DNA of 64,000 nt. It comes from Alphaproteobacteria bacterium (GTDB taxonomy: Bacteria > Pseudomonadota > Alphaproteobacteria > JAAXGF01). The stretch lies in the NCBI GenBank assembly GCA_963555825.3, contig CAUVXB020000001.1, positions 1,792,001 through 1,856,000 on the forward strand, given 5' to 3'. The notes beneath the pieces are model-generated. The model was not told the origin of the DNA. It made no database searches and saw nothing but the letters and a program-made list of their open reading frames with translations. The translations under genes were made by a program, and so were the position numbers. Below are positions 1,361 through 28,467 of the stretch, piece by piece; position 1 is the stretch's first letter, and each line of letters begins with the position of its first letter.

Positions 1361-1726
1361 ACTACCGCAGGGCGGCCGAGGCTATTGTGGGTAGCCCTGC
1401 TTGGAATGGTCAACTTGGTATCTGGGGCGAAGAGATGATCAAGGACACGGCGATTAATCCGTCATTCGCAATTGACACGCCACAGAAAAATGTAGCCGCT
1501 CGGGTAAACATCCACCTCCACCGGCAGGCCCTTCACGGCGAAGATTTCAGTGGTATAGACTTGGACGAAGATTGGGTTGACTAGCCACTCGAGGTCCTTC
1601 CACCGTAAGAGCCGATCCAAGAAGTTGTTGGATCGGATGAATCGGTTGTAATTCATTGTTGGGCACTCGAAACATTTCGGAGGGTTGCGCGATGTGGACG
1701 CCCGAAAACCGGCAAGCTATCAGCCT

Positions 1727-1882
1727 GATAGCGCGCTCAGCAAGTGGTTCAACGAGCGCACTGTGGGGTCCCGCGGGCGGATCCGCCGGGTGATGATCGT
1801 GGCGCTCGCCCGCAAGCTGCTCATCGCGCTCTGGCGGTTCTCCGAGACCGGCCTCGTGCCGACTGGCGCCAAGCTCGCCTGA
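1727..1882 (+). pseudogene. IS110-family recombinase C-terminal fragment
   Basis: SALSKWFNERT...RRVMIVALARKLLIALWRF...GAKLA* carries the IS110 C-terminal VALARKL motif; the 5' part is missing. Confidence 0.8.
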
Positions 1883-2223
1883 TCGCAAGACCGCGCTGTT
1901 CCAGACCGGCCGGACGCGGCCGGGGCTGGGTCGGGTGGCGAGTGGCCGAGGCTCTTGCGGGCTGAAACACGCCGACCGAGAGATGGGCCCCGCCTCCGGA
2001 ACGCTGCGTCCGCAGCAAGCGGGATCGAGGGACGGTTCCGGCGCTCCGTCGCCGAAAAACCTCCCGCATAAGAGTTGGGTATGCGCACAAGCGCGACCGA
2101 TGCGAAAAGCGTTCCGACCTGGCTACAAAGGCAAACCAACCGTCAATCCGACCAACCCAGAAAACGAGTTCGCCATGCAGTAAACCCAACCAACTTCTCC
2201 GCTTGACTGCGTCTGCCCTCATA
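1883..2223 (+). ncRNA. Candidate IS110 bridge/seekRNA-encoding right non-coding end
   Basis: ~340 nt non-coding tract after the IS110 stop; internal CATAAGAG (2068-2075) repeats the terminal CATAAGAG (2220-2227); TTGACT -35-like box at 2203-2208. Confidence 0.45.
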
Positions 2224-2314
2224 AGAGCGAGAGCTTTAGCCGCAGGCGGGCGAGGGCGGATGCCGAAGAGGGTGTCTCCGCCCGGTTCCGCATTCACGCA
2301 ATCCCGGAGACTGA
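2224..2314 (+). repeat. 91-bp copy of the leader upstream of the ParB-like gene
   Basis: 89/91 identical to the reverse complement of 52566-52656. Confidence 0.9.
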
Positions 2315-2726
2315 GAACGGCAGAGCAATAATCCCCCACTGAAGCGGCCGGTCGATCCGGCTGCGGCGGACCAAAATGGGACCGCGTATAGCCTTCTGTC
2401 AGGGTTGCTCTGACTGGAAGGCGGGGGGGATGTATCGGGTGGAGTTGTACGCACGGGTTCGGCGGGCGTGTCATGTCGAGGGGATGAGCACCCGCGAGGC
2501 CTCGCGGGTGTTTGGTGTAGACCGCAAGACGGTCCGTAAGATGCTGTCGTTCTCGGTGCCGCCAGGGTATCGCCGAAGCGCGCCGCCGAGGCGGCCAAAG
2601 CTGGGTCCGTTCACGGGAATCATCGATCGGATCTTGGAAGACGATCGGACCAGCCACCGCAAGCAACGGCACACTGCGAAGCGCATCTTCGACCGGAGCT
2701 ATGTCCGAAAGTTGGTGACGGAGCTA

Positions 2727-3983
2727 TCAGGCGGCGTGTTTGGTTATCTTGATTCCGTCCTTGAACGGCACTCCTTCGACGAGTTCGGCGAGTTGATTTG
2801 ATCCGTCCAGCTTCCGCCATTTCCGCCTGGCACTCAAGATCAGTTTGAAGGCCATGGCGAGCGCCGTCTTGCGGCTCAGGCACCCCTTGGTCTTCACGGT
2901 CCTCAGGCGCACCGTGGCGAAGGTGCTTTCGATGGGGTTGGTGGTGCGGATGTGCTTCCAGTGCTCGGCCGGGAAGTCGTAGAAGCTCAGCAGGCGTTCA
3001 CGGTCCTTGACCAGGCGCTCTGCGGCCTTGTGGTATTTTGCGCCGTAGGCTGCGATGAAGAAGTCGAAGGCGGCTTCGGCGTCGGCCCTAGTCTCGGCCA
3101 TCCAGATGTCGTGCAGATGGCCCTTGGCTTTGGCCTGCAGGGATTTGGGCATCTGGTTGAGCACGTTGGCGGTCTTGTGGACCCAGCAACGCTGCACCCT
3201 GGTCTCTCCGTAAACCTCGCGTAGCGCCTTCCAGAAGCCCAAGGCGCCGTCGCCGACGGCCAACTCGGGGCCGGTCTCCAAGCCCCGGCGCTTGAGATCA
3301 AGCAGCAGTTCCTTCCAGCTTTGCGCGCTCTCTCGATAACCGTCGACCATGCCGACGATGTCCTTGTTGCCCATGGCGTCGGCGCCGATGATCACCAGAA
3401 CACACTGTTTGTCATGGTCCATGCGAGGCGAGAAGTAGACCCCGTCGGCCCAAAAATAGACGTAGCGCCGAGCCGAAAGGTCGCGCTTTTGCCAGGCTTC
3501 GTATTCGTCCCACCAGACCGCTTTCAGCCGGCCAATGGTGCTGGCCGTCAGGCCCGGCGCGTCCGGTCCCAGCAGCGCCGCCAGGGCCTCCGAAAAGTCG
3601 CCGCTGGAGATGCCCTTCAGATAAAGCCAGGGCAGAAGCGCCTCGACCGACTTGGCGCGCCTGAGATAAGGCGGCAGGATCGATGACGTGAAACGGATGC
3701 GCCCGCCCGTGGCCTGTGGATCTCGGTCTCGCACTCTTGGCCGCTTCACCGTCACAGCTCCGATCCCGGTCTGAACCTCGCGTTCCGGCATGTGCCCGTG
3801 ACGGACAATACGGCGCCGGCCCGAAGCGTCGGTCAAATCGGCATGGGCTTCAATATGGGCGGCAACTTCCGCTTCAATCGCCTGGCCAAGCAACTGCCGG
3901 GCGCCGGCGCGCAATATCTCCGTCAGCGGATCGTCGGAAAATGACTCTGGCTGGCGCAACGCAACAACTGTATCGTCTTTCAT
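2727..3983 (-). CDS. IS256-family transposase
   Basis: Protein identical to 73-1329. Confidence 0.95.
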   Translation of the reverse strand: MKDDTVVALRQPESFSDDPLTEILRAGARQLLGQAIEAEVAAHIEAHADLTDASGRRRIVRHGHMPEREVQTGIGAVTVKRPRVRDRDPQATGGRIRFTSSILPPYLRRAKSVEALLPWLYLKGISSGDFSEALAALLGPDAPGLTASTIGRLKAVWWDEYEAWQKRDLSARRYVYFWADGVYFSPRMDHDKQCVLVIIGADAMGNKDIVGMVDGYRESAQSWKELLLDLKRRGLETGPELAVGDGALGFWKALREVYGETRVQRCWVHKTANVLNQMPKSLQAKAKGHLHDIWMAETRADAEAAFDFFIAAYGAKYHKAAERLVKDRERLLSFYDFPAEHWKHIRTTNPIESTFATVRLRTVKTKGCLSRKTALAMAFKLILSARRKWRKLDGSNQLAELVEGVPFKDGIKITKHAA

Positions 3984-4062
3984 GGCGTATCCCTTTCTTC
4001 GGAAAATTGGCGTCTTCATCAACGCCAGGATACGCCGCCTTCATTCTCCATCACCAAGATTC

Positions 4063-5850
4063 GACGGGGCGGTAAAAAGTCGATTCCTCATGAGAGTCGG
4101 CTGGATTATAATTGTGCATGTTTACTTTACGCGACCGACGGACTGGGGAATTGTTTGATCGCTGGTCCGATTTCGGGGACAAACGTCGGCGCCTGATGGA
4201 GCAATCCTGGGCCGGGGTTTTTCGGAACCATCTGCTTGTCGAACTTCCGGTTGACGATCTTTGCCGTCACCTTGATGAACGCATGGGCCGACCATCGAAG
4301 GATCTACACGTTGTCATCGGGGTCTTGCTTTTGCAGCAGCTGCACGATCTGAGCGATGCAGAGACCGTCGAGGCCCTGGCCTTCAATATGGCGTGGCACT
4401 ATGCCTTGGACGTGCGCAGCGAAGCGGACAGCTATTTCTGTGAGAAAACCCTGCGCAACTATCGCCGTCTGTTTATCGAACAAGGTCTCGATGAATTGCT
4501 GTTCCGGTGTTTGACGGATCGGCTGGTGCAGGGGTTCTCTGTCGATACCAGCCACCAACGCATGGATTCGACGGCCCTTCGTTCGGCAATGCGGGCGCTG
4601 ACACGACTTGGTATCGTTGTTGAGAGCATCTCGAAGTTTGCCCGTGAGCTTGAGCGATATCATCCCGGTCTGCACGAGCAGATCAGCAAGGAGGTGATCC
4701 GCCGCTATGTCGATCGCGAGGGTAATGGCGCGTTCGCGAATACGGCGCCGAGTGTTTCAAAACGGCGCCTCGGCGAAGCGGGTCAGTATCTCCTAGCCCT
4801 GGTGCTGCAATTCCGTGACACGGCGGCGGCAAAGCTTTTCAGTTTTGCGATCCTGGAGAGGGTTCTGCGCGATCAGTTCGAGATCGTTGATGATGAGTAT
4901 GGCGATCGTGACGCAACGCGCGCCGCGATTCGAGATCCAAAGGATGTGCCGTGCGATACCGTCGGCAATCCGGCCGACCCGGACGCGAGCTACAACGCGC
5001 ACAAGGGTCAAGGATACATGGCGCAGATCGTCGAAACCTATTGTGAAGATGTCAGTAACGAGGCGGTTGCCGCGACACCGGACCTCATCACCCACGTGGA
5101 GGTCCACAAGATGACGGTGCATGACGGCCATCGCTTGGCCGATGCGCTGGATGATCTGAGCGAGCGCGCGCTGACGCCGGCGGTGATGCTGGGTGATTCA
5201 CATTACGGTTCCAGTGACAACATGGCTCTGACGCGCGAACAGAACATCAATCTCGTGGCGCCCGCACGACCGCCGAAAGGCGCCGTCTCGGGACGGTTGA
5301 CGTTGGAGGATTTCACTCTCAACGAAGAAGGCTTGGTCTTGCGCTGTCCCAATAACGTCGAACCGGTTTCAGCCTCGCTCGCCAAAGCCAAGCTGCAGGC
5401 CCGTTTCGACCTCTCCATCTGCCAAAAATGTCCCGATATACTGCGATGTCCCGTGCAGGCGGCCAAGCGTGACGGCCAATTTTCCCGCTTTCAATATACC
5501 CCGGCCAGGGCTGCCAACCAAAAGCGCCGGCTTTATGAACAAAGCGATGCCTTCCGCAACGTCTACAGATGGCGGGCCGGCATAGAAGCGACCATGTCGC
5601 GATTAAAGTACCAGATGAACCTGGCTCACCTACGCATTCGCGGCATGCCGGCCATGCGCTACGTGGTCAATCTGCGTGCCCTCGGCCTCAATATCCGACG
5701 CTGCGCGGCAATCGCACCATAAAAAACGAAGCCAAGGAGAAGCCATCGTAATATCAGGTTTTTCCACCAGCAACGCGGATCGGCAAATATTCTTCACCGA
5801 ACCGCAAAGACCGTACAAGCAATCGGCCAACAACTTTTTACCGCCCCGTC
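4063..5850 (+). mobile_element. IS1182/IS5-like element (1788 bp)
   Basis: Perfect 18-bp IR GACGGGGCGGTAAAAAGT at 4063-4080 and 5833-5850; 7-bp TSD AAGATTC at 4056-4062 and 5851-5857. Confidence 0.92.
4118..5722 (+). CDS. IS1182/IS5-like DDE transposase
   Basis: GRPS...LSD N-terminal motif, RMDST, DPDA, GDSHYG, Cys-rich insert, YRWRAGIEATMSRLK. Confidence 0.85.
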   Translation: MFTLRDRRTGELFDRWSDFGDKRRRLMEQSWAGVFRNHLLVELPVDDLCRHLDERMGRPSKDLHVVIGVLLLQQLHDLSDAETVEALAFNMAWHYALDVRSEADSYFCEKTLRNYRRLFIEQGLDELLFRCLTDRLVQGFSVDTSHQRMDSTALRSAMRALTRLGIVVESISKFARELERYHPGLHEQISKEVIRRYVDREGNGAFANTAPSVSKRRLGEAGQYLLALVLQFRDTAAAKLFSFAILERVLRDQFEIVDDEYGDRDATRAAIRDPKDVPCDTVGNPADPDASYNAHKGQGYMAQIVETYCEDVSNEAVAATPDLITHVEVHKMTVHDGHRLADALDDLSERALTPAVMLGDSHYGSSDNMALTREQNINLVAPARPPKGAVSGRLTLEDFTLNEEGLVLRCPNNVEPVSASLAKAKLQARFDLSICQKCPDILRCPVQAAKRDGQFSRFQYTPARAANQKRRLYEQSDAFRNVYRWRAGIEATMSRLKYQMNLAHLRIRGMPAMRYVVNLRALGLNIRRCAAIAP

Positions 5851-7106
5851 AAGATTCAGCTATAGCTCTTCGACCGCCTCCGGGACGAGTACGGTTTCAC
5901 GGGCGGCTACACCATCGTGAAGGACTACGTTCGTGAGCAGGGGCTTCGGTCGCGTGAGGTGTTCGTGCCACTCTCCCATTCCCCCGGTCACGCCCAGGCG
6001 GACTTCGGCGAAGCGATGGCGGTGATCGGCGGCGCGTTACGGAAGATCCACTTCCTTGCCTTCGACCTTCCCCACAGTGATGGTTGCTTTGTTGCGGCCT
6101 ATCCGGCGGAGACGACCGAAGCATTCTGCGATGGCCACAACGCGGCGTTTGCCTTCTTCGGCGGCGTCCCCCGATCCATCCTGTACGACAACACCAAGCT
6201 GGCGGTTGCCCGGATCCTGGGCGATGGGAAGCGGCAGCGAACGCGCGTCTTCACGGAGCTTCAGTCCCACTATCTGTTCGAGGACAGGTTCGGCCGGCCG
6301 GGCAAGGGCAACGACAAGGGCAAGGTCGAGGGACTGGTCGGCTTCATCCGGCGGAACTTCCTGGTCCCCGTCCCGCGTGCCGAGAGCTTCGCGGCCCTCA
6401 ACGATGCTCTCGCCGAACAGTGCCGCCGGCGCCAGGCGGCGCGGCTGCGGGGCCACAAGGAGACCATCGGCGAGCGTCTCGAGCGGGATCGTCAAGTTCT
6501 CTTGCCATTGCCGCCTGCTCCCTATGATGCCTGCGATAAGCGCCCTGGACGGGCGAGTTCGCTGTCGCTGGTGCGTTACCGCAGCAACGACTATTCCGTG
6601 CCCGTGGCCTACGGCCACCGTGAGGTGCTCATCCGGGGCTACGTCGATGAGGTGGTGATCAGCTGCGGGGCCGAGGTGATCGCCCGGCACCGCCGGTCCT
6701 ACGACAGCGAGGACCTGATCTTCGACCCGCTGCATTACCTGCCCTTGATCGAGCAGAAGATCGGCGCCCTCGACCAGGCCGCGCCATTGGCGGGCTGGGA
6801 CCTGCCCGAGGCCTTCATCACTCTGCGGCGGCTCCTCGAAGCTCGTATGGGCAAGGCAGGCAAGCGCGAGTACGTCCAGGTGCTCCGTCTACTGGAGACC
6901 TTCCGGCTCGAGGAGGTCGAGGGTGCGGTCGGCGACGCCCTGCGGCTCGGCGCAATCGGCTTTGATGCGGTGAAGCACCTGGTACTGTGCCGCATCGAGC
7001 GGCGGCCGCCCAGGCTCAACCTCGACGTCTATCCGTATCTGCCGCGCGCCCGGGTCGCGATGACGTCCGCCAAGTCGTACATGAGCCTGCTGTCGGGGCT
7101 CGGCGC

Positions 7107-7871
7107 ATGACCGACACACCGCAAGTGCTGCTCGCCCACCACCTCAAGACGCTGAAGCTGCCGACCTTCCTGCGCGAGTACGACAAGATCGCCCGGCAGT
7201 GCGCCTCGGAAGGCGTCGATCACGTCCGCTACCTGTTGAGACTCGCCGAGCTCGAGCTGATCGACCGCGAGCGCCGCATGGTCGAGCGGCGCATCAAGGC
7301 GGCGCGCTTCCCCGTGGTCAAGAGCCTCGACAGCTTCGACTTCAAGGTCATCCCCTCGCTCAACAAGGCGCTGGTCCTGGAGCTGGCCCGCTGCGAGTAC
7401 ATCGAGCGCCGCGAGAACCTCATCGCGCTCGGCAACAGTGGGACCGGCAAGACCCACATCGCCCTCGGTCTCGGCCTGGCGGCCTGCCAGAAGGGCCTCT
7501 CGGTCGGCTTCATCACCGCCGCCGCGCTGGTCCACGAACTCATCGAGGCCCGCGATGACAAGCAGCTGCTGAGGTTCCAGAAGAAGCTCGCCACCTACAA
7601 GCTTCTGATCGTCGACGAACTCGGCTTCGTGCCGCTGTCGAAGACCGGCGCCGAGCTGTTGTTCGAGGTGTTCAGCCAACGCTACGAGCGGGGCTCGACC
7701 CTGGTCACCACCAATCTGCCCTTCGACGAATGGACCGAGGTGTTCGGCTCCGAGCGCCTCACCGGCGCGCTCCTCGATCGCCTCACCCACCACGTCAACA
7801 TCCTCGAGATGAACGGTGACAGCTACAGGCTCAACCAGAGCCGCAGGCGTCAAACCCCGACTGCTAACTGA
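7107..7871 (+). CDS. istB: IS21 helper AAA+ ATPase IstB
   Basis: Walker A GNSGTGKT, Walker B LLIVDELG, ALLDRLTHH; ATGA overlap with istA. Confidence 0.95.
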   Translation: MTDTPQVLLAHHLKTLKLPTFLREYDKIARQCASEGVDHVRYLLRLAELELIDRERRMVERRIKAARFPVVKSLDSFDFKVIPSLNKALVLELARCEYIERRENLIALGNSGTGKTHIALGLGLAACQKGLSVGFITAAALVHELIEARDDKQLLRFQKKLATYKLLIVDELGFVPLSKTGAELLFEVFSQRYERGSTLVTTNLPFDEWTEVFGSERLTGALLDRLTHHVNILEMNGDSYRLNQSRRRQTPTAN

Positions 7872-8062
7872 ACCGACCACCCAGCCCACGCTTGACCCCG
7901 TGGGCCCACAGGTCCCTCCCGCGCGCGCCGCCGCGTCAGCCTGTTGAGGGCACGCCGCGTCGCGCGCGGGGCCCTCCCGTGGACTACGGGGACAAGCCCG
8001 CAGCCGCCAAGCGGTCCCTTCTTACACCGCCGAGGTGGTCCCTTTTTGCTCCGCCATTGACA

Positions 8063-9226
8063 GTGAGGCTGAAGTCGGCCTGGCGAGCGGTCACACGGTG
8101 CCCGAAGTGTGCCGGACCTTGGGCATCGCCGAGCAGACGTACTATCGGTGGCGCAAGGAGTACGGCGGCCTGAAGGTTGGGCAGGCCCGACGCTTCAAGG
8201 AGCTCGAGCGGGAGAACACACATCTCAGGCGAGCCGTCGCCGATCTGACGCTGGATAAACTGATCCTGAAGGAAGCCGCCGAGGGAAACTTCTAAGCCCC
8301 GAGCGTCGCCGGCGCTGTGTTGAGCATGTCTGCACACGATATGGATTACCCGAGCGCCGGGTGTGCCAGGTCATCGGACAGCCACGCTCGACGCAACGCT
8401 ATCGACGTGTCGGGGCTGACGATGAGGCGGCGCTCACCGAGGCGATCGTGCGGCTAGCCAGTGAGTATGGCCGCTACGGCTATCGCCGGGTCACGGCGCT
8501 GCTCCGCGGAGAGGGTTGGCACGTGAACCACAAGCGGGTCGAACGCATCTGGCGACGGGAGGGGCTGAAGGTGCCTGTAAAGCAACCCAAGAGAGGCCGA
8601 CTGTGGCTCAACGACGGGTCCTGCATCCGTCTGCGGCCGAGCTGGCCGAACCATGTCTGGGCCTATGACTTCGTCATGGCCCGCACACACGATGGCAGGA
8701 CGTTCCGCATGCTGACGATCATCGACGAGTGGACCAGGGAGTGCCTGGCGATCGACGTCGCCCGGCACCTGCGATCCGACGACGTGCTGTATCGCCTGGC
8801 GGCACTGTTCGTCGACCGGGGGCCACCGGACCACATCCGCTCGGACAACGGCAGCGAGTTCACCGCCAAGGCCGTCCGTGACTGGCTGGCGAGAGTCGGT
8901 GTGACGACGCTCTACATCGCGCCGGGGAGTCCCTGGGAGAACGGCTACAACGAATCATTCAACGGCAAGCTCGGAGACGAGCTGCTCGACGGTGAGATAT
9001 TCTACTCGCTCAAGGAGGCTCAGGTGTTGATCGAGCGATGGCGGCATCACTACAACACGGTCAGGCCGCACAGTGCGCTGGGCTATACACCCCCGGCACC
9101 ACAGACCATCGTGCCCAAATGGACTGATCCGGCCTTCGCTATTGATGGGCTACAGCCGGATCAGCCCTTCCCAGAAACCGTGCCAGGACTAACATAGGAA
9201 CTGGTACATAGAATGGGGGCAGGCCA
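8063..9226 (+). mobile_element. IS3-family (IS407-group) element, 5'-truncated by IS21
   Basis: Identical to the 3' part of 31617-32892; the left IR and orfA start are missing; right IR ...GGGGGCAGGCCA. Confidence 0.92.
8292..9197 (+). CDS. IS3-family OrfB (DDE integrase domain), normally fused to OrfA by -1 frameshift
   Basis: [40 protein letters not shown]; GGGAAAC slippery site at the end of orfA. Confidence 0.9.
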
Positions 9227-16450: not shown

Positions 16451-19400
16451 TCGCCCGCCGGTGGTCCAGACCCGCCGAATCCAGGCAACGACAGCGCCGA
16501 AAGCGAAGGTTTCGGCGCCGCGGTCGCTGCAGCCGAGCCCGGGGCCTCAAGCTCGAACCGCCAGGTCTTCAACTGTGTTGGCGTGACGCCGGACTCTGCA
16601 GCCGCACTGCTATGCCTCGCACCCAGTTCCGACAGGCGGACAACCGACTGTTCCTTGTATCCCAGCGAAAATCGCGCCGCCCTGGCATCCCTTCCGCCAT
16701 CGGTGCGTCGGCCCAGAAGGGCGAGACCGGCCCGTCGTCGGCGAACGCCTCCTCCCAGGCAAGAAGCCCCCAGGGCGCGGCCTCCAGGCCGGCCTCGGTC
16801 TGCCTGCGAATCGGGATGGGCTCGCCTTCCGGGCCGGACGTGCGATCCGCCGCGGCAAGCGACACCGGACGAGCCCGAACCCTGCCGGGCGCGCGCCACC
16901 TGCCCGTGGCGATCCCCAAAGAGGGCGCCCGGTGCCGGCATTCTCAGACGTGCCGCCGGTCGGGCGCATCTCCCCTGCCCGGCCAATGCCACCCGGACCG
17001 GCGGACAAGGACAACCGCGCCGCGTCCCCGCCTGCCCTACCAGCGCGCCGTGACCCTGAGACCGATCTCGTTATCGGGCTCGCGATCGTCGTTCGCAGGC
17101 TCCCGCCGGGTCGCGTTGAGCGAGACGTCGAACTTCACCCGGTCGCTCCGCGCGAGTGCGAGCCGCCAGCCCACCCTGTAATCGCGGTCCGCATTGGACA
17201 GCCCGACGCCAACCTCCAGCGTGCCCGTGAACCGGTCGCCGAACAGCGGAAACCCGTAGCCGAGAGTCGCCTCGAGACGGCGCCGCTGCAGATCGCCGCC
17301 GCCGTCGTTGGCCGCAAGACCCTCCAGCGTGCGCCGCGACAGAAATGCATTCATCCCGCCCGTTGCCGACCCGCCCACCGTCTGGCGCAGCCTGAAGGCG
17401 AAGCCCCGCTCCGACGCCGGGTCGGGATCCCAGGCGAGCGAGCCCGCGATGCCGCGTTCGCGCAAGCCCCCCGCCTCATGGGTGAGCAGCCCGCGGGCCT
17501 GCACCTCCGCCTCGACCCCGGAGCTCGGGTCCGACCAGGCGAGACCCGCCCCGATATCCGCGCCGTAGCCGGTCTCCGCGTCGCCGCCGTCATGGCGCAC
17601 GCCGATCTCGAAGCTCGGCACCAGCCGCCCGCCGCCGAGCCCGAGCTCCAGCGATCCCTCAAGCCCCAACCGCAGCCGCGTGACCTCCGCCTTGGCCGCC
17701 GCCATCGCACCCGGAACCGCCTCCGAGCTCGTGCGCACGATGAAGCCGTCGGAGACGAGCGCAAGCTCCGCACCGCCGCCCTCCGCCGGGCTCAGGAGCT
17801 CGCCGCGCAGCCCCGCTCCCGCCATCGTCAGATCCATGTCAGCGTCGATCCGGGGTTCCGCCTCGGGCTTCAGCATGAGCTCCCCCGACCCGTAGCCGAG
17901 CGTGCCCCACAACGACAGGCGTTCGCTCACCCGATAGCGCCCGTAGGGATAGACCCCGGTCAGGGTCGATTCCACCTCGCCCCTGCTGCGCGGGCTGCGG
18001 TACCCCCCTTCGCCCCACGAATGCGACACCAGCAGCCCCACCGTTGCCCGCTCGCGCGTCCAGTCGGCCCCCACCATGGCGCTCGTCACCTCGCCGTCGA
18101 GCGAGAGATCGCCCTCGCGGCCGTCGAAGCGCGAGACCGCGGCCCGGCCCCACAGCGCACCGAAGCCGCCCTGCTGCGTCCCGGCCGTCAGCGCAAAGGA
18201 GCTCCCGACCAGAAGGTCGCGCTCCGTCACCGCCCGCGAGCGGAAGCCGGCGCCGTCTTCCTCATCGTCCTCGCCGCGCAACCAGCCGGAGAGCGCCTCC
18301 AGCCGCGTCTCCGCCTCCCGCGCCTCCGACCCGCCCGGCGGCGCCACGCCGCCAATCCGCTCGCCCGCCAGGCTCACCTCGACTCCCGGACGCCGTGCCG
18401 CCTCGAGACGGTTCTCCACCGCCCCCATCACCTGCTCCGCGACCGTGCGCCCAAAGCGCGCGATCCATGCCTTGGGTAGCGGATCGCTGTTCTTGATGGT
18501 CCCGGTCGCCGTGCCGTCCGCGATCCGCACGTACTCCGACGGCGACGGATTGGTAAGCGTCAGCGTCAGCGTCTCCGAGTCTTCGTCGTGCGAATCGTCC
18601 AGCACCGGCACCGAAACCGTCTTGCTGGTCTCCAGCGCCGCGAAGCTCAGCCTCCCCGACGTCTCCGTGTAGTCCGAACCCGCCCTGGCCGTGCCGTCCG
18701 AGGTCGCATACTCCACCGCCGTCTCGTCGAACCGTGCTCTGCTCAGCCTCACGGTGAACTCAAGCGTCGCATCCGCCCCTTCCTCGACCTCCGCGTCCGC
18801 CACCGAGAGCGTCGCCAGCCCCTGGATCGACACGCTCGCCGTCCCTTCGATCTTCCGCCCGGCCGCGGTGCACACCGCGCCCGGTCTCCCCGCAGGCCGG
18901 CAGCGCCGAGGCCAGCGACAGGCTCACCGCGCCGTCGCCAGCCGGTTTCACGACGATGTCGAACTCGAGGTCGGCCGGCGGGTCGACCCTTCGTGCTCCG
19001 GTGATGGTGCCGCCTTTCACCGTGAACATCGTGTCGCGCACCGTCTTGTAGCTCACGTCCGGTTCCATGTTGAACGTGAGCCGCACTTCGAACGTGCCGC
19101 TTCCCTTGTGCTCGGCCGGGCCGCTGAGGGACGCGGTGAGCGCTTTGCCCGCTATCGTTGCCGATGCCGGTCGCGAGAGCGGCCGCCCGCCGATGCACAC
19201 CGCGGCCGTCTCGCTGCACGCATGCGCGGGCAGCGTGAGCGTGATGTCGTAGCCCTGCGAGGGCTTGACCGTCACATTCCATTCGCGGTCGCTTGCGTCC
19301 GTCACCCGCAATGCCTTGGTCACCGTCCCGCCGGTCACCTCGAGCAGCGAGTCGCGCACCGTCTTGTCGCTCAAGCCCCGGGGCTCGGCGCTGAAGCTCA

Positions 19401-21210
19401 ACTTCACCGTGAACGGCTTTTCCCCGTCATGCGACGACGGCATCCCGCTGAAATACGCCGTGGGTCCGTCCGCCACACCGCGCGTCGCCCGCGCCGGCAC
19501 CGGCTCCGGCACCGCCGACTCGGCCACCCCGTCGTGCGCGAGATCCGCATCGATGGTGCTGTCCGCCGTCGACACGATGGTGCCGCCGTTCAGCGCCAGG
19601 CTGTCGCCCGTCACCTGCATCGTGTCGTGCGGGCCCTCGCCGTCGGCCAGCGTGTAGCCGAACACCAGCTTCGCCGTCCCCGAGCCGCTCGCGTAGGCCG
19701 CGCTCTGCGCCTGCGTGCCCAACAGCAGGCCGATCGACGGCGTACCGCCGGCGGTTTCCACGCTCACCGGCTCGCTGAAGGTGAGCTGCACCTCCACCGT
19801 CTCGCCCGCCGTCCACAAGCCGTCCGTGCCCGCCTCGCTCAGAACCGGCACTCCCACGACCACCGGCGCCGCCACGACCACCGGCGCCTCGAGCTGGTTG
19901 TTCACTATCGTGCCGTGCGCGAGGTCCGCATCGACGCCATTGTCCGTCTTCCACACGATGGCGCCGCCGCGCACCCGCAGCGTGTCGGGGAGCACCTTCA
20001 CCGACTCGAACGAGTCCCCGCCCGCCAGCCTGTGCTCGAACACCAGCGCCGCCGTCCCCGAGCCGCTCGCGTACACCGCGTCACGTTCCTCAATCACGCC
20101 CCCGGTGTCGTACCCCACCACCAGCTTCGGCGCGAGCCCGCCCGCCGGGGTCGTCACCACCACCGGCTGGTTCCACTCCACCGTCACCTGGAGCGTCCCG
20201 CCCGCCGTGTAGGGCCCCGACGCCGGGCTCACCGCGACCAACTCCACCTGCGGCATGATGCGGCACTGCACCCCCACGGCTTCGCGCGGGCGGCAATTGT
20301 GCACCCCCACGGCCAGGTTTCCTTGGCGCGGGCAAGCGAGCAGACTCGTCTCGTTGCCTTCGCAGTTGACATTGTCCAGCCACATCCGCATGCCGGCGGG
20401 CGTCGGGCCGAAGTACGGAGGCAAGGAGCGGCCCTGTTCGTCCCGGGTGCGTCCCCTGTTGTCCACCGCGCCCAGTTTCCACTCGAGGATACTGCACACC
20501 ACGCCCGCCTCCACGTCCGTCCAGTAGTCGTCGCAGACCGTCCCCCACTGGCCTTCGTGGCGTATCTCCAGGCGGCCCTCGTGGTCTCCCGTGCCGTCCA
20601 CCAGGCGAAGCTCCGCGCCGAGGGGCTCGTCGTCGTCCCGGATGGTCAAACGCTCGGCGTACGGGTGCCAAACGAGCCCGGACTCCTCCATTCCCACCAC
20701 GTCCACCGTCCCTGTCACGACCAGATTTTTGTCTGGACCGTCGACGTCATCGTCCACCGCGCTAATGGTCACGGTTCCCGTGCTGGCCTTCTCTCCCGCT
20801 GGGATCGTCAACACCGTGCCGATCTGGGTGAAGTCACCGGATGCCGTCGTCGTCCCGACCGGCGCCGCCGATATCGTCACCTCGACCGCTTGAGCCACCT
20901 TGTCCTTGGCTACCTTCGTGTTCAGCCTCGCCGTCACCGTGCTCTGACCACCGTTCTCAGAGATGCTGGCCGGGGTAACCTCCAGCGTCACCCGGGGTAC
21001 GGCCTCGTCCTCGAAGATGTTCCAGTCGCTGTGCTTGCCGACCCGATTCCGGTCTATGCCGGTTACCGACGCGATGTCGAGGACGACCCTTCTGTGGAAG
21101 AGCGGCCCGTAGTACTCGTCGTTCGAGGACGCAAGCGTGACATCACCCGTGCTGCGCATCTCGCCGGCGCTTATGGTCAATGTGCGGTTGGCGCTCAACG
21201 TGTAATCGTC

Positions 21211-22588
21211 GAGCTATAGCTGAATCTTGGTGATGGAGAATGAAGGCGGCGTATCCTGGCGTTGATGAAGACGCCAATTTTCCGAAGAAAGGGATACGCC
21301 ATGAAAGACGATACAGTTGTTGCGTTGCGCCAGCCAGAGTCATTTTCCGACGATCCGCTGACGGAGATATTGCGCGCCGGCGCCCGGCAGTTGCTTGGCC
21401 AGGCGATTGAAGCGGAAGTTGCCGCCCATATTGAAGCCCATGCCGATTTGACCGACGCTTCGGGCCGGCGCCGTATTGTCCGTCACGGGCACATGCCGGA
21501 ACGCGAGGTTCAGACCGGGATCGGAGCTGTGACGGTGAAGCGGCCAAGAGTGCGAGACCGAGATCCACAGGCCACGGGCGGGCGCATCCGTTTCACGTCA
21601 TCGATCCTGCCGCCTTATCTCAGGCGCGCCAAGTCGGTCGAGGCGCTTCTGCCCTGGCTTTATCTGAAGGGCATCTCCAGCGGCGACTTTTCGGAGGCCC
21701 TGGCGGCGCTGCTGGGACCGGACGCGCCGGGCCTGACGGCCAGCACCATTGGCCGGCTGAAAGCGGTCTGGTGGGACGAATACGAAGCCTGGCAAAAGCG
21801 CGACCTTTCGGCTCGGCGCTACGTCTATTTTTGGGCCGACGGGGTCTACTTCTCGCCTCGCATGGACCATGACAAACAGTGTGTTCTGGTGATCATCGGC
21901 GCCGACGCCATGGGCAACAAGGACATCGTCGGCATGGTCGACGGTTATCGAGAGAGCGCGCAAAGCTGGAAGGAACTGCTGCTTGATCTCAAGCGCCGGG
22001 GCTTGGAGACCGGCCCCGAGTTGGCCGTCGGCGACGGCGCCTTGGGCTTCTGGAAGGCGCTACGCGAGGTTTACGGAGAGACCAGGGTGCAGCGTTGCTG
22101 GGTCCACAAGACCGCCAACGTGCTCAACCAGATGCCCAAATCCCTGCAGGCCAAAGCCAAGGGCCATCTGCACGACATCTGGATGGCCGAGACTAGGGCC
22201 GACGCCGAAGCCGCCTTCGACTTCTTCATCGCAGCCTACGGCGCAAAATACCACAAGGCCGCAGAGCGCCTGGTCAAGGACCGTGAACGCCTGCTGAGCT
22301 TCTACGACTTCCCGGCCGAGCACTGGAAGCACATCCGCACCACCAACCCCATCGAAAGCACCTTCGCCACGGTGCGCCTGAGGACCGTGAAGACCAAGGG
22401 GTGCCTGAGCCGCAAGACGGCGCTCGCCATGGCCTTCAAACTGATCTTGAGTGCCAGGCGGAAATGGCGGAAGCTGGACGGATCAAATCAACTCGCCGAA
22501 CTCGTCGAAGGAGTGCCGTTCAAGGACGGAATCAAGATAACCAAACACGCCGCCTGATAGCTCCGTCACCAACTTTCGGACATAGCTC
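21211..22588 (+). mobile_element. IS256-family element, copy C (1378 bp, complete)
   Basis: 9-bp TSD GTAATCGTC at 21202-21210 and 22589-22597. Confidence 0.96.
21301..22557 (+). CDS. IS256-family transposase
   Basis: Identical to 73-1329. Confidence 0.95.
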   Translation: MKDDTVVALRQPESFSDDPLTEILRAGARQLLGQAIEAEVAAHIEAHADLTDASGRRRIVRHGHMPEREVQTGIGAVTVKRPRVRDRDPQATGGRIRFTSSILPPYLRRAKSVEALLPWLYLKGISSGDFSEALAALLGPDAPGLTASTIGRLKAVWWDEYEAWQKRDLSARRYVYFWADGVYFSPRMDHDKQCVLVIIGADAMGNKDIVGMVDGYRESAQSWKELLLDLKRRGLETGPELAVGDGALGFWKALREVYGETRVQRCWVHKTANVLNQMPKSLQAKAKGHLHDIWMAETRADAEAAFDFFIAAYGAKYHKAAERLVKDRERLLSFYDFPAEHWKHIRTTNPIESTFATVRLRTVKTKGCLSRKTALAMAFKLILSARRKWRKLDGSNQLAELVEGVPFKDGIKITKHAA

Positions 22589-22840
22589 GTAATCGTCGGC
22601 CCTCACCGTGTGGTCCACGTGCGCTTCGTCAACACCGATCGTTACCGTCACGTCGTCGGACAACGGCTGGCTCAGGTGCGCGATGACCTTGCTGGTCTCG
22701 CCCTCGACCACATGTGCCGGCACCGGCGAGACCGTCAGCCGCGCACTGGTGGTATCGTCATCGAGGGTGTAGACGAAGATGGGGTCGTTGAATCGCACGA
22801 AGGCGTTGTCAGTAGACGGGACGAGCCTCACCAGGACTAA

Positions 22841-24310
22841 CAGCCCGTTGACGAAGTCTTCCCTGGACGAAGTCGGCATGGTCTGATTCTCTGGTGTCCT
22901 GGCCTGAAGGGGGGTTCGCTGATGGCGATGGGACAGCAGAAGGATCGTCAGGGGGACTTGATGGTGAGCTGGTCGGAGATGCCGCGCTCGCCAGGTCATG
23001 TATTTTACGACCGCCTGCAGTTGGTACTGATCGAGGGCGGCTTCGACGGCTTCGCCGAGGCGGTCTGCCAGCCCTATTACGCGGCCAGGATGGGGGCGCC
23101 TTCGGTGCCACCCGGGCGCTACTTCCGTATGCACCTGGTGGGCTACTTCGAGGGTATCGACTCTGAGCGTGGGCTGGAGTGGCGGTGCTCGGATTCCCTG
23201 TCGCTACGGGAGTTCCTGCTGTTGGAGAGGCGGGGACGGGTGCCGGACCATTCCTGGCTGTCACGGACCCGCGCGCGCCTGCCCCATGAAGTCCACACGG
23301 CGGTGTTTGACTGGGTCCTGGCGCTGATCGCCGAGGCGGGTCTGGTGAAGGGCGAGCGCATCGGGGTGGATGCCTCGACCATGGAGGCCAACGCGGCGCT
23401 GCGCAACATCGTGCGGAGGGACACGGGCGAGGGTTACCGGGGGATGCTGGAGCGCTTGGCCCAGGAGAGCGGTATCGAGACACCCACGGCTGAGGACCTG
23501 GCGCGTCTGGACCGCAAGCGCAAGGGCAAGAAGCTCTCGAACCAGGACTGGGTTTCCAGGAGCGACCCCGAGGCCAAGATCGCCAAGATGAAGGACGGCA
23601 CCACGCACCTGGCCTACAAGCCCGAGCACGCGGTGGATCTGGACACCGGCGCGGTGGTGGCGGCGGAGCTGCACCCGGCCGACGAGGGCGATACGACAAC
23701 GCTTCCCAAGACCCTGGCGGCGGCCGAGGCAAACCTCGAGGCGGTGGATGTGGCGCCGACGGCCGAAGATCCGGCCGAATGTGTGACCGATAAGGGCTAC
23801 CACTCACGGTTGGTCTTGAAGGCGCTCGACGACGGCCCCTGGAAGAGCCGGATCTCCGAGCCCAAGCAGAAGGGTTTTGCGCGCTGGCACGGAGATGATG
23901 CGGCTCGCCGGGCGGTCACCAACAACCGGACCCGGCTGTTATCGGGGGTGGCCAGGGAAGCCTTCAAGCTGCGCGCCGAGATCGTCGAGCGCTCCTTTGC
24001 CCACAACCTCGATCGCGGCGGCATGCGCCGGACCTGGCTTCGGGGCCGCGAGAACGTGCACAAGCGATACCTGCTTCACGTCGCCGGCCACAACCTATCG
24101 TTGCTGATGCGCCAACTCATCGGCGCCGGCACCCCGAAGGAGGCCGTGGCGGGCGGAATTGGCGCCTTGTTCGTGCTTGTTACGCCCGCTGGAGCCGTCC
24201 TGGTCGTTCAGATCGTCCTCATCGTCTCGGAGGATGGCGAAACCGCCTTCGCCGCGATATGCTTCGCCGTGGCGTGAAACCCGGTCAATGACGCCTTTTT
24301 CAACGGGCTG
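22841..24310 (+). mobile_element. IS1182/IS5-like element (1470 bp)
   Basis: IR CAGCCCGTTGA at both ends; 4-bp TSD CTAA at 22837-22840 and 24311-24314. Confidence 0.92.
22922..24277 (+). CDS. IS1182/IS5-like DDE transposase
   Basis: VPDHSWLSR, GVDASTMEANA, DPEAK, DKGYHS, RAEIVERSFAH. Confidence 0.88.
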   Translation: MAMGQQKDRQGDLMVSWSEMPRSPGHVFYDRLQLVLIEGGFDGFAEAVCQPYYAARMGAPSVPPGRYFRMHLVGYFEGIDSERGLEWRCSDSLSLREFLLLERRGRVPDHSWLSRTRARLPHEVHTAVFDWVLALIAEAGLVKGERIGVDASTMEANAALRNIVRRDTGEGYRGMLERLAQESGIETPTAEDLARLDRKRKGKKLSNQDWVSRSDPEAKIAKMKDGTTHLAYKPEHAVDLDTGAVVAAELHPADEGDTTTLPKTLAAAEANLEAVDVAPTAEDPAECVTDKGYHSRLVLKALDDGPWKSRISEPKQKGFARWHGDDAARRAVTNNRTRLLSGVAREAFKLRAEIVERSFAHNLDRGGMRRTWLRGRENVHKRYLLHVAGHNLSLLMRQLIGAGTPKEAVAGGIGALFVLVTPAGAVLVVQIVLIVSEDGETAFAAICFAVA

Positions 24311-26015
24311 CTAACTCGTTCCTCATGTTGTCGTCATCGACCGCCGTGAGGGTCACGACGCCCGTGCTCTCGGTCTCTCCCGCGGCGATCATCAGGACCG
24401 GATCGGCGCTCAGTTCCGCCGCGTCCGAATCCTCGCTGAGGGTCACCGTCACGTTGGCCGGCATCGGCCCCTGCAGCGAGCGCATGGTGATCGTGCTGAC
24501 CTCGCCCTCCGCTATCGTCGCCGGTGTCGCTCTCAGAGAGACCCGGACTCGCTCGTCGTCTTCCAGTATGGTCAGCGTCTGATTCGCGGGGTCGGCTACG
24601 CCGCCGCCGGTCACCGTCCCCGAGACCGTGACCACCCGTCTTCGGGTTCCGACACTAAACTGGTCGTCGACCGTTGCGATGGTGACCGTCCCCGTGCTCC
24701 TTGTTCCGCCCGACGGAATCGTCAGCACCGTATTGGCGCTCAGCACGTAGTCGTCCGTGCGGGTGTCGGCGTGACCAGGCGACGCGGACACCGTGATCGT
24801 CGCCTCGGCGCTCAGAGGGCCGCTCGCTACGGCAGTGACCGTGCTGGCCAGTCCTTCCCTGACCCGCGGCGGCGTGAACACGAGGGCCACCTCCGGAGAC
24901 ATATCGTCGTCGTACACGATCGTCAGTTGCAATGGTCCGGGCGTCCGGATGCTGCGCCCCTCGGTCACCGTCGCCGAAATCGCGATCGTCTGGTCCGGCT
25001 CGTCGTCAGCGTTGTCCACGGCTGTGATGGTCAGGGTCTCGGTGGCGTCGGTCGCTCCCGGCTGGAAGGTCAACGTGGTGCCGCTCAGCGTGGCCCGGTC
25101 GCTCGGCTCCAGCGATACCGTCATCTTCACCACGCCCTCGTGCAATGCGTACTTGAACGCGAGCAGCGTAGCTTCGCCGCCGTTCTCGAAGATCGTCGAC
25201 GGGGTGACACTCCACCCAGTGAGGGTGTTGTCGTCGTCGACAACGGCGAATGACTCGATGTCCGCACCCACGCGGGGATGGTCCGAAGTCAGCGTCGCGG
25301 TGAAGTAGCGGATGCCCGTGTAGGTGAAGTCGTCCAGGGAGGTGAACTCCACGGTCCCGGTGCTCTCCATCGTCCCGGCGGCAATCGTCAACGTCGTGTT
25401 GGCGCTCAGTTCGTACTCGTCGTCCCTGCCGCCATTCGGGGCTACTGTGACGGTGATGCTGACATCGTCGTCCAGGGGCATGGGGAGCCTCGCCCGGATC
25501 GGTTTGCTCGTGCCCTCGGTGACGGTCTTCTCGACCACAGCCTCCACCCGCATGGTTGTGGTGTCGGTCACAGTGACCGCCAGATCGGCGGACACCGTGC
25601 CGTAGTCGCCGCCCGTTGCGGTGTGGGTCAGGGTGGCGCTGTCGTGTGTCGCGTCCGAGTCCCGCGCCGCCAACACGGTCACCATCTGCGCCGTGTCCCA
25701 ATTCGACGTCGTGAACGTCAGACTCATCCTGCTCAGCGACAGGTCTGTGCCCGACGTCCCGCCTATCGACACCGTCACCTCCGCGGTGGGCAGCGTGGCG
25801 AGCTTCACCGTGTAGCTGGCGGAACCCGCCTCGGGCACGTCCAGGGAAGTCGGAGAGAGCACCAATGGCGATGGCTCCTCGGCCAGCGTGCTGAATGTGA
25901 GAACGGCAGAGCAATAATCCCCCACTGAAGCGGCCGGTCGATCCGGCTGCGGCGGACCAAAATGGGACCGCGTATAGCCTTCTGTCAGGGTTGCTCTGAC
26001 TGGAAGGCGGGGGGG

Positions 26016-27515
26016 ATGTATCGGGTGGAGTTGTACGCACGGGTTCGGCGGGCGTGTCATGTCGAGGGGATGAGCACCCGCGAGGCCTCGCGGGTGTTTG
26101 GTGTAGACCGCAAGACGGTCCGTAAGATGCTGTCGTTCTCGGTGCCGCCAGGGTATCGCCGAAGCGCGCCGCCGAGGCGGCCAAAGCTGGGTCCGTTCAC
26201 GGGAATCATCGATCGGATCTTGGAAGACGATCGGACCAGCCACCGCAAGCAACGGCACACTGCGAAGCGCATCTTCGACCGCCTCCGGGACGAGTACGGT
26301 TTCACGGGCGGCTACACCATCGTGAAGGACTACGTTCGTGAGCAGGGGCTTCGGTCGCGTGAGGTGTTCGTGCCACTCTCCCATTCCCCCGGTCACGCCC
26401 AGGCGGACTTCGGCGAAGCGATGGCGGTGATCGGCGGCGCGTTACGGAAGATCCACTTCCTTGCCTTCGACCTTCCCCACAGTGATGGTTGCTTTGTTGC
26501 GGCCTATCCGGCGGAGACGACCGAAGCATTCTGCGATGGCCACAACGCGGCGTTTGCCTTCTTCGGCGGCGTCCCCCGATCCATCCTGTACGACAACACC
26601 AAGCTGGCGGTTGCCCGGATCCTGGGCGATGGGAAGCGGCAGCGAACGCGCGTCTTCACGGAGCTTCAGTCCCACTATCTGTTCGAGGACAGGTTCGGCC
26701 GGCCGGGCAAGGGCAACGACAAGGGCAAGGTCGAGGGACTGGTCGGCTTCATCCGGCGGAACTTCCTGGTCCCCGTCCCGCGTGCCGAGAGCTTCGCGGC
26801 CCTCAACGATGCTCTCGCCGAACAGTGCCGCCGGCGCCAGGCGGCGCGGCTGCGGGGCCACAAGGAGACCATCGGCGAGCGTCTCGAGCGGGATCGTCAA
26901 GTTCTCTTGCCATTGCCGCCTGCTCCCTATGATGCCTGCGATAAGCGCCCTGGACGGGCGAGTTCGCTGTCGCTGGTGCGTTACCGCAGCAACGACTATT
27001 CCGTGCCCGTGGCCTACGGCCACCGTGAGGTGCTCATCCGGGGCTACGTCGATGAGGTGGTGATCAGCTGCGGGGCCGAGGTGATCGCCCGGCACCGCCG
27101 GTCCTACGACAGCGAGGACCTGATCTTCGACCCGCTGCATTACCTGCCCTTGATCGAGCAGAAGATCGGCGCCCTCGACCAGGCCGCGCCATTGGCGGGC
27201 TGGGACCTGCCCGAGGCCTTCATCACTCTGCGGCGGCTCCTCGAAGCTCGTATGGGCAAGGCAGGCAAGCGCGAGTACGTCCAGGTGCTCCGTCTACTGG
27301 AGACCTTCCGGCTCGAGGAGGTCGAGGGTGCGGTCGGCGACGCCCTGCGGCTCGGCGCAATCGGCTTTGATGCGGTGAAGCACCTGGTACTGTGCCGCAT
27401 CGAGCGGCGGCCGCCCAGGCTCAACCTCGACGTCTATCCGTATCTGCCGCGCGCCCGGGTCGCGATGACGTCCGCCAAGTCGTACATGAGCCTGCTGTCG
27501 GGGCTCGGCGCATGA
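26016..27515 (+). CDS. istA: IS21 transposase IstA
   Basis: N-terminal HTH, PGHAQADFGE, ILYDN, KGKVEG, YSVP. Confidence 0.95.
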   Translation: MYRVELYARVRRACHVEGMSTREASRVFGVDRKTVRKMLSFSVPPGYRRSAPPRRPKLGPFTGIIDRILEDDRTSHRKQRHTAKRIFDRLRDEYGFTGGYTIVKDYVREQGLRSREVFVPLSHSPGHAQADFGEAMAVIGGALRKIHFLAFDLPHSDGCFVAAYPAETTEAFCDGHNAAFAFFGGVPRSILYDNTKLAVARILGDGKRQRTRVFTELQSHYLFEDRFGRPGKGNDKGKVEGLVGFIRRNFLVPVPRAESFAALNDALAEQCRRRQAARLRGHKETIGERLERDRQVLLPLPPAPYDACDKRPGRASSLSLVRYRSNDYSVPVAYGHREVLIRGYVDEVVISCGAEVIARHRRSYDSEDLIFDPLHYLPLIEQKIGALDQAAPLAGWDLPEAFITLRRLLEARMGKAGKREYVQVLRLLETFRLEEVEGAVGDALRLGAIGFDAVKHLVLCRIERRPPRLNLDVYPYLPRARVAMTSAKSYMSLLSGLGA

Positions 27516-28276
27516 CCGACACACCGCAAGTGCTGCTCGCCCACCACCTCAAGACGCTGAAGCTGCCGACCTTCCTGCGCGAGTACGACAAGATCGCCCG
27601 GCAGTGCGCCTCGGAAGGCGTCGATCACGTCCGCTACCTGTTGAGACTCGCCGAGCTCGAGCTGATCGACCGCGAGCGCCGCATGGTCGAGCGGCGCATC
27701 AAGGCGGCGCGCTTCCCCGTGGTCAAGAGCCTCGACAGCTTCGACTTCAAGGTCATCCCCTCGCTCAACAAGGCGCTGGTCCTGGAGCTGGCCCGCTGCG
27801 AGTACATCGAGCGCCGCGAGAACCTCATCGCGCTCGGCAACAGTGGGACCGGCAAGACCCACATCGCCCTCGGTCTCGGCCTGGCGGCCTGCCAGAAGGG
27901 CCTCTCGGTCGGCTTCATCACCGCCGCCGCGCTGGTCCACGAACTCATCGAGGCCCGCGATGACAAGCAGCTGCTGAGGTTCCAGAAGAAGCTCGCCACC
28001 TACAAGCTTCTGATCGTCGACGAACTCGGCTTCGTGCCGCTGTCGAAGACCGGCGCCGAGCTGTTGTTCGAGGTGTTCAGCCAACGCTACGAGCGGGGCT
28101 CGACCCTGGTCACCACCAATCTGCCCTTCGACGAATGGACCGAGGTGTTCGGCTCCGAGCGCCTCACCGGCGCGCTCCTCGATCGCCTCACCCACCACGT
28201 CAACATCCTCGAGATGAACGGTGACAGCTACAGGCTCAACCAGAGCCGCAGGCGTCAAACCCCGACTGCTAACTGA
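27512..28276 (+). CDS. istB: IS21 helper ATPase IstB
   Basis: Identical to 7107-7871. Confidence 0.95.
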   Translation: MTDTPQVLLAHHLKTLKLPTFLREYDKIARQCASEGVDHVRYLLRLAELELIDRERRMVERRIKAARFPVVKSLDSFDFKVIPSLNKALVLELARCEYIERRENLIALGNSGTGKTHIALGLGLAACQKGLSVGFITAAALVHELIEARDDKQLLRFQKKLATYKLLIVDELGFVPLSKTGAELLFEVFSQRYERGSTLVTTNLPFDEWTEVFGSERLTGALLDRLTHHVNILEMNGDSYRLNQSRRRQTPTAN

Positions 28277-28467
28277 ACCGACCACCCAGCCCACGCTTGA
28301 CCCCGTGGGCCCACAGGTCCCTCCCGCGCGCGCCGCCGCGTCAGCCTGTTGAGGGCACGCCGCGTCGCGCGCGGGGCCCTCCCGTGGACTACGGGGACAA
28401 GCCCGCAGCCGCCAAGCGGTCCCTTCTTACACCGCCGAGGTGGTCCCTTTTTGCTCCGCCATTGACA

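Follow-up and report, generated by a model that had tools for sequence, protein, structure and literature searches.

A scavenger receptor cysteine-rich domain encoded in an insertion-broken autotransporter gene of an alphaproteobacterium

The DNA analyzed here, a 64,000-nucleotide stretch of an alphaproteobacterial genome referred to below as the window, encodes a genuine animal-type scavenger receptor cysteine-rich (SRCR) domain on the minus strand at positions 20263 to 20610, as was confirmed by profile, alignment and structure comparisons. The domain is one of the modules in the passenger of an autotransporter of the classical kind (type Va, about 2040 residues). The family to which this protein belongs occurs in several phyla and is a variant form of the classical autotransporter of which no description was found. 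Taking all parts of the reading together, we consider it probable that this is an SRCR autotransporter adhesin that has been inactivated in the present genome and whose family has spread laterally among bacteria.

A preliminary description of this DNA had placed an SRCR domain at these positions, and the peptide that it quoted is the exact minus-strand translation of them. The claim held. The segment matched the PF00530 (SRCR) profile at E = 1.7e-22 over profile positions 2 to 99 of 100, with a score of 80 bits lying well above the cut-off of 26.1, it carries six cysteines, and both the structural model and the Foldseek search returned the SRCR fold. The plus-strand reading of the same positions was rejected, as it yielded no domain and no meaningful translation. 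Cysteines are found only at domain positions 26, 39, 83, 93, 106 and 116, a pattern that we take to be that of group A, presumably defined by six cysteines as against eight in group B; one animal SRCR domain aligned to it (P0233) has two additional cysteines. A sequence search of the PDB matched 22 distinct SRCR chains at E ≤ 1e-10, from proteins including neurotrypsin (1.9e-19), CD163, CD5L, SCARA5, MARCO, DMBT1 and M2BP. An AlphaFold2 model built on 33 bacterial SRCR sequences reached a predicted local distance difference test (pLDDT) value of 85.7 and a predicted template modeling (pTM) score of 0.80, with residues 41 to 70 as the sole weak stretch. The matches listed by Foldseek for this model against the PDB were all SRCR domains at a probability of 1.00, with template modeling scores of 0.74 to 0.88 for the single-domain SRCR entries among the top matches. 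In the alignment, one loop of the window domain exceeds its counterpart in animal SRCR domains by about 13 residues and a 3-residue insert is also present, and the region of the long loop is one of low model confidence. A profile scan of the 6.04 Mb source genome found the window copy only (80 bits), and a search of 40 related genomes, including 10 that are less than 90% complete, found no SRCR domain in any of them.

The preliminary description had also set the domain inside a bacterial surface protein, and Pfam matches and intact orthologues bear this out by giving the gene an autotransporter architecture. When the portion of the gene downstream of the SRCR domain was used as the query, uninterrupted homologues were found. 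Among these, P0275 (1988 residues) shows 99.5 to 100% identity to all four pieces of the gene in the window (Table 1) and reads through the frame change and through both insertion sequence (IS) sites that divide them, and passenger and barrel form one uninterrupted polypeptide in P0275, P0276 and P0277. Five orthologues of 2037 to 2041 residues (P0277, P0526, P0527, P0532 and P0533) span from MSRLSASG... to ...RVTARW. Their 56-residue leader (MSRLSASG...ALLALAALSLAAAENAAAQS, ending in AAAENAAAQS) is basic and hydrophobic and, judged by eye, looks like a Sec signal peptide. The larger window fragments are 88 to 96% identical to P0277 and P0526, and the 80-codon piece is 75% identical to P0277; metagenome proteins at 93 to 100% identity to the window gene are likewise uninterrupted, and some carry a signal-peptide-like leader. 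The order of modules in the intact orthologues is leader, Calx-beta-like repeats, SRCR domain, two immunoglobulin (Ig)-like repeats, two CX6C repeats, Calx-beta domain, linker and barrel. On P0277, Pfam placed the SRCR domain at residues 852 to 964 and a Calx-beta domain at 1448 to 1554, and upstream it gave matches of lower strength to DUF5006 and LapA-type domains. Of the ten cysteines in the intact protein, six, widely spaced, lie in the SRCR domain and the others form two CX6C pairs.

In the window, the frame that holds the SRCR domain (18760 to 21213, minus strand) begins within a Calx-beta-like repeat and proceeds from the end of that repeat through another Calx-beta-like domain, the SRCR domain, two Ig-like repeats and two CX6C-pair repeats, closing in an out-of-frame tail rich in arginine and glycine and a stop. 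Downstream of it, positions 17037 to 18875 (minus strand) matched Calx-beta at 63.9 bits and PF03797 (Autotransporter) at 37 bits against a cut-off of 26, and the open frame of the barrel (17037 to 18923, minus strand) has the C-terminus ...RVTARW, with W as the final residue. In the upstream fragment, homology to the orthologues begins at the 11th codon (LVLSPTSL...), with 99.6% identity to residues 1 to 515 of P0275 and 93% to residues 57 to 571 of P0526.

The window copy is inactivated by four breaks, three IS elements and one frameshift, all of which the preliminary description had overlooked. An extra base in a short G/C run near 18883 uncouples the passenger frame from the barrel frame; P0248, P0275, P0276 and P0277 read through this site, and P0520, which lies on a different contig, has an out-of-frame tail identical to that of the window. 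The IS256-family element is flanked by a 9-bp target duplication (21202 to 21210 and 22589 to 22597) and the IS5/IS1182-type element by a 4-bp duplication (CTAA), the boundaries of the latter element being accurate to about 1 base. The IS21-family element occupies the place of the gene start and signal peptide, and no target duplication was seen in its flanking sequence. Since a tblastn search with the first 56 residues of P0277 found no match in the window genome at E ≤ 10, the gene start and signal peptide have been lost in this genome. The copy thus has no signal peptide, and its passenger and barrel are split by two IS insertions and the frame change. When the region was compared with its own genome by BLAST, four repeated blocks emerged, including an IS21-type block at about 29334 to 32912. 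Near-full copies in the genome number 14 for the IS256-type element (99.96% identity), 21 for the IS5-type element and 59 for the IS21-type element (99.6%), and matches to the last total about 217 kb, or 3.6% of the genome. These copy numbers and identities point to a recent burst of IS activity.

Uninterrupted and broken alleles of the gene coexist in public data. At 90% identity, P0275 belongs to a cluster of 16 proteins, and the 15 listed include five proteins of 1987 to 2041 residues, two of 1815 to 1867 residues and eight fragments of 162 to 949 residues, the window's own 806-residue product and P0520 among them. Contigs from three DNA runs (X1, X4 and X8) and one RNA run (X19) were aligned to the window, and joints with sides shorter than 30 letters were left uninterpreted. 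Both empty IS sites are bridged by a single 612-nt contig of X1 and by contigs of X4, and the IS5-type site is also bridged in X8; the joins run from 21201 to 22589 (X1 and X4) and from 22836 to 24311 (X1, X4 and X8). At 18883, contigs of all four runs are without one letter. The RNA run gave a few short contigs overlapping the gene, at 93 to 97% identity, one of which is without the extra base; its library may hold DNA. The coexistence of uninterrupted alleles implies that the decay of the window gene is recent and at strain level, having occurred during the IS burst. A separate feature of the X1, X4 and X8 contigs is a joint from 18811 to 20622 or 20624, with 3 to 5 extra letters, that bypasses the block from the SRCR domain to the CX6C repeats; with sides of just 20 to 21 letters, it may be a repeat artifact between Calx-beta boundaries or may come from a relative without this cassette.

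To place the SRCR domain among its relatives, several searches were combined. Those ranked by summed score were dominated by multi-SRCR animal proteins, and only P0245 and P0248 were useful from them; these single-domain metagenome proteins have SRCR domains 86 to 87% identical to that of the window. By BLAST, SRCR identity was 79% for L003 from Tectimicrobiota, 75% for L002 from Binatia, and 46 to 54% for L004 to L009, which come from Acidobacteria, Alphaproteobacteria, an unnamed bacterium, Chloroflexota and Gammaproteobacteria. The SRCR domains of animal DMBT1-like, CD163 and SSC5D proteins were 36 to 50% identical per domain; the best animal SRCR domain, from sea urchin, was at 47%, and two sponge proteins were at 40 to 43%. 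A scan of prokaryotes with two motifs (one genome for each of 185,579 species, giving a lower bound) matched 123 stretches. The 111 that were confirmed agree with the statement of the preliminary description that such domains are uncommon in bacteria. The set retained comprises 78 loci of 55 isolates and spans at least 12 phyla, with 14 of the isolates belonging to Myxococcota (3 of them Bradymonadia) and 2 to Bdellovibrionota.

A quick IQ-TREE analysis covered 198 SRCR domains over 100 columns, with support from the Shimodaira-Hasegawa-like approximate likelihood ratio test (SH-aLRT) only and unrooted as to the direction of transfer. Its rows were 141 domains from loci of metagenome-assembled genomes (MAGs), 54 domains from 18 named animal proteins, for each of which just the three best-scoring domains were retained, two ENA proteins and the window; 3 of 152 bacterial matches that covered fewer than 86 profile positions and seven identical duplicates had been dropped. 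The window domain was placed in a 5-row clade (SH-aLRT 99) within a 19-row, all-bacterial clade (SH-aLRT 92) drawn from Binatia, Tectimicrobiota, Acidobacteriota, Chloroflexota, Alphaproteobacteria and Gammaproteobacteria, deeper branches lacking resolution. The phylogeny that the preliminary description had proposed as a check therefore nests the domain among bacterial SRCR domains, the nearest at 75 to 87% identity, so that what had been called a eukaryote-type domain has bacterial and not animal proteins as its closest kin. The SRCR segment has a GC content of 0.681 and a third-position GC content (GC3) of 0.853, compared to 0.686 and 0.873 for the rest of the gene and a genome GC content of 0.653. 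This match in composition, together with the all-bacterial clade, fits the long residence in bacteria that had been suggested from codon usage.

The autotransporter context of the domain recurs in other phyla. L002 (also P0384), from a Binatia MAG, is an uninterrupted frame of at least 3032 residues in its locus and 3391 residues by the genome scan, and encodes cadherin-like repeats, the SRCR domain, the same two Ig-like repeats, a Calx-beta domain and a barrel. Its SRCR-plus-Ig block is 74% identical to that of the window over 376 residues, and its Calx-beta-plus-barrel block is 49% identical. The module directly upstream of the SRCR domain differs among P0248, P0245, L002 and the window. All five clade proteins scanned with Pfam (L004, L005, L006, L010 and L044) have an SRCR domain followed by a Calx-beta domain, and homologues of the window barrel at 34 to 46% identity are present in L002, L004, L005, L006 and L010 (near-whole barrel) and in L033, L027 and L044 (most of it). 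PF00530 was present in 13 of the 120 homologues listed by the search with the downstream part, and many others share the downstream repeats only. The occurrence of the nearest SRCR relatives in other phyla points to lateral spread with module shuffling, and the evidence as a whole points to lateral spread among bacteria over a recent capture from an animal.

Two of these relatives showed further features. Near the end of its 1..9099 frame, L002 has eight tandem GVLGK units in the barrel region, which is an odd location for them. P0245, an ENA protein from a 3.9 kb contig, has its own leader, with fn3, SWM-repeat and Calx-beta modules upstream of the SRCR domain, and an out-of-frame tail right after it, which indicates another broken or misassembled allele.

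The source genome comprises 6.04 Mb in two contigs and is that of an IS-rich alphaproteobacterium, whose RpoB has its nearest named matches in MAGs of Alphaproteobacteria and Rhodospirillales type (76 to 85% identity). Of the words sampled from the gene, 64% or more are present in each of sixteen public runs. Three of these runs, from one study and labeled as sponge metagenome, contain 64 to 74% of the words, and the other holders have coded organism names; two seawater-labeled runs contain next to none, although they were chosen by study and are no proof of absence. The sponge-labeled runs speak for the marine-invertebrate association that the preliminary description had suggested and support a sponge-associated bacterium as the source. 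The family of SRCR autotransporters is at least partly sponge-associated.

Conserved residues suggest how such a protein could act. Across the 33 bacterial SRCR domains, three residues (D28, D79 and E110) never vary, and two more (D27 and N105) show conservation of 90% or above. Mapped by motif (CDD, LD[DN] and HNC....E), and not by alignment, D28, D79, E110, D27 and N105 correspond to D1020, D1058, E1086, D1019 and N1081 of DMBT1; position 80, the counterpart by motif of D1059, is N in the window. In DMBT1 SRCR8, D1019, D1020 and E1086 are assigned to site 2 and D1058, D1059 and N1081 to site 3; these residues are described as holding two surface cations, and several ligands are reported to be no longer bound when D1019 or D1020 is mutated (PMC7043408). 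From this sequence conservation, we infer that adhesion may proceed through the cation site of the SRCR domain. The intact protein would be exported by Sec, its barrel would insert into the outer membrane, and the passenger would be displayed as a long beta-sandwich stalk bearing the SRCR domain, which would bind its ligand in a cation-dependent manner via the acidic site used by animal SRCR domains and thereby serve as an adhesin. The ligand could belong to the sponge, as matrix or cells, or to other microbes.

Several points weigh against the interpretation as an inactivated adhesin of a laterally spread autotransporter family. The barrel call depends on homology and on the modest Pfam score given above. 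Model autotransporters stall on folded or disulfide-bonded inserts (PMC8419823); the SRCR domain holds six of the ten cysteines of the intact protein, widely spaced, so that its crossing of the outer membrane needs explaining. The P0275-type alleles start with MVLSPTSL and so may have lost their 5' end as well. In addition, contigs rather than raw reads were compared, contig depth gives no allele frequencies, and X1 is possibly the same sample as the source of the window assembly.

With respect to function, the SRCR domain could instead bind other bacteria, prey or polyanionic particles and serve aggregation or competition in sponge tissue rather than host adhesion or mimicry, an alternative that we judge possible but rather doubtful. 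SRCR domains are also found in MAGs of the predatory lineages Myxococcota, Bradymonadia and Bdellovibrionales, which means that a host-directed role is not the sole reading and that binding to microbial surfaces fits equally; the putative cation site, conserved in sequence, is, moreover, the one that in DMBT1, a protein that agglutinates bacteria, serves broad anionic ligands. However, the 19-row clade of the window is made up of lineages other than Myxococcota and Bdellovibrionota, and it is sponge-labeled runs that contain the gene. A more far-reaching host-directed proposal, which, with all its parts taken jointly, we regard as unlikely, is that sponge symbionts of unrelated groups (Alphaproteobacteria, Binatia, Tectimicrobiota, Acidobacteriota and Gammaproteobacteria) share the SRCR autotransporter by lateral transfer and use it to mimic the SRCR receptors of the sponge. 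Under this proposal, the surface SRCR domain would attach to the matrix or to aggregation molecules of the host, or would blunt recognition and phagocytosis, and IS insertions and frameshifts would hold the gene in on/off flux within symbiont populations. If it were true, this would also be a natural instance in which a domain with three long-range disulfides is exported by an autotransporter.

The state and origin of the gene also admit other explanations. The IS insertions and the frameshift could represent a minor haplotype or choices made in assembly, the gene being uninterrupted and functional in most cells. X1, the best holder, lends this some weight, as its contig that bridges both empty sites has a word depth of 212.9 compared to 249 to 255 for neighboring unique contigs, and its contigs are also without the extra base. 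Contig depths cannot rank alleles, however, and clean target duplications argue for real insertions; P0520 has the same out-of-frame tail on a separate contig, the P0275-type alleles begin after the lost 5' end, and no signal-peptide exon is present in the genome. A functional gene in this organism is therefore improbable in our judgment. Far less credible still, to the point where we set it aside, is that the SRCR domain derives from sponge host DNA through chimeric assembly or a very recent animal-to-bacterium transfer. Its identity of up to 47% to animal DMBT1-like SRCR domains and the life of the organism in sponges would be in its favor, but the domain is in frame with the bacterial Calx-beta modules and, in other alleles, with the barrel, its GC3 of 0.853 is like that of its flanks, the same architecture is seen in independent assemblies and phyla, and its nearest relatives are bacterial at 75 to 87% identity while the two sponge proteins reach just 40 to 43%. 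Contamination with host DNA was accordingly rejected as the source, being contradicted by reading frame, GC3 and bacterial kinship. The interpretation that we retain is that of a bacterial SRCR autotransporter adhesin whose copy in this genome has decayed.

Table 1. Coordinates of the SRCR domain, the pieces of its gene, the breaks between them and the SRCR-less paralogues (window positions unless a contig is given)
Feature	Coordinates	Strand	Details and basis
SRCR domain	20263..20610	-	116 residues, six cysteines; translation, Pfam, alignments, model and Foldseek
Gene fragment with SRCR domain	18760..21210	-	Open reading frame 18760..21213, Pfam; 100% identity to uninterrupted P0275 over 777 residues
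Last Calx-beta, linker and autotransporter beta-barrel	17037..18877	-	Pfam; 98% identity to P0248 C-terminus
Frame change, one extra base relative to in-frame alleles	18878..18886	-	Two frames overlap
IS256-family element, transposase 21262-22557	21211..22588	+	Transposase_mut 199.9 bits, inverted ends
80-codon gene fragment between two IS elements	22598..22836	-	Open frame; 100% identity to P0275 519-598
IS5/IS1182-type element, transposase 22922-24277	22841..24310	+	Pfam DUF772, DDE_Tnp_1
Upstream gene fragment	24315..25897	-	Calx-beta-like, DUF5006-like and LapA-like repeats; translation, Pfam
IS21-family element, istA-like 25962-27515, istB-like 27392-28276	25898..28466	+	IstB_IS21 238.6 bits, rve, Mu-transposase C
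SRCR-less paralogues	G000:C2:121973-124540; G000:C2:584870-586750		Open frames of 3411 and 1036 residues

Other features of the region and genome were recorded alongside. At least two paralogous autotransporters with Calx-beta and barrel but no SRCR domain are encoded in the window genome, at 57 to 60% identity to that of the window, and a genome of the same class (G018) has 16 matches. Beyond the IS21-family element lies an unrelated gene with a NOV_C domain (Protein NO VEIN C-terminal; 28297 to 29139, plus strand, GC content about 0.58), wedged between two IS21-type blocks. Window positions 60001 to 62000 have a GC content of 0.506, whereas elsewhere the window runs at 0.57 to 0.73.

In animals, the SRCR domain is a hallmark of innate recognition. 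Its fold and a putative cation site, conserved in sequence, on autotransporters of sponge-associated bacteria from several phyla make these proteins a testable candidate for recognition between symbiont and host or between symbiont and microbe. The question is also raised of how a disulfide-rich domain passes through a type V system, and the window copy illustrates the decay of a gene in an IS burst, with intact and broken alleles side by side in public data. SRCR domains are expanded in some sponges, and abstracts treat them as host receptors (e.g. PMC4772301, PMC10855680); no paper on symbiont-encoded SRCR proteins was found in the literature as accessed, where supplementary domain tables could still name SRCR. 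Among the eukaryotic-like proteins that sponge symbionts encode, SRCR autotransporters may be a new class; single genes for such proteins are reported to let cyanobacteria escape sponge phagocytosis (PMC13747020).

Compared to known systems, the domain resembles animal SRCR domains (SCARA5, SCARA1/CD204, MARCO, neurotrypsin, DMBT1 and CD163) in its fold, its six cysteine positions and the acidic residues that by motif match those of the cation site, and differs from them in being 35 to 47% identical, in its long loop and in its occurrence as a single copy in a bacterial protein anchored in the outer membrane. The intact orthologues are built like type Va autotransporter adhesins, with leader, passenger and, at the C-terminus, a PF03797 barrel in one polypeptide. 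In classical autotransporters the passenger is usually a beta-helix, whereas here Calx-beta, Ig-like and SRCR modules follow one another in a chain, and the window copy is without a leader and split. A further difference is the presence of three presumed long-range disulfides, of a kind poorly secreted by model autotransporters (PMC8419823). The Binatia protein L002 is alike in having an SRCR domain and two Ig-like repeats followed by Calx-beta and barrel, but it belongs to another phylum, has about 13 cadherin-like repeats before the SRCR domain, is without the two CX6C repeats and is uninterrupted. Finally, sponge symbionts have eukaryotic-like proteins of other classes (ankyrin, TPR, LRR, fibronectin III and cadherin); the likeness to these lies in the presence, in a sponge-associated bacterium, of a eukaryote-type domain that plausibly acts on the host, and the difference is that the SRCR domain is carried on an autotransporter.

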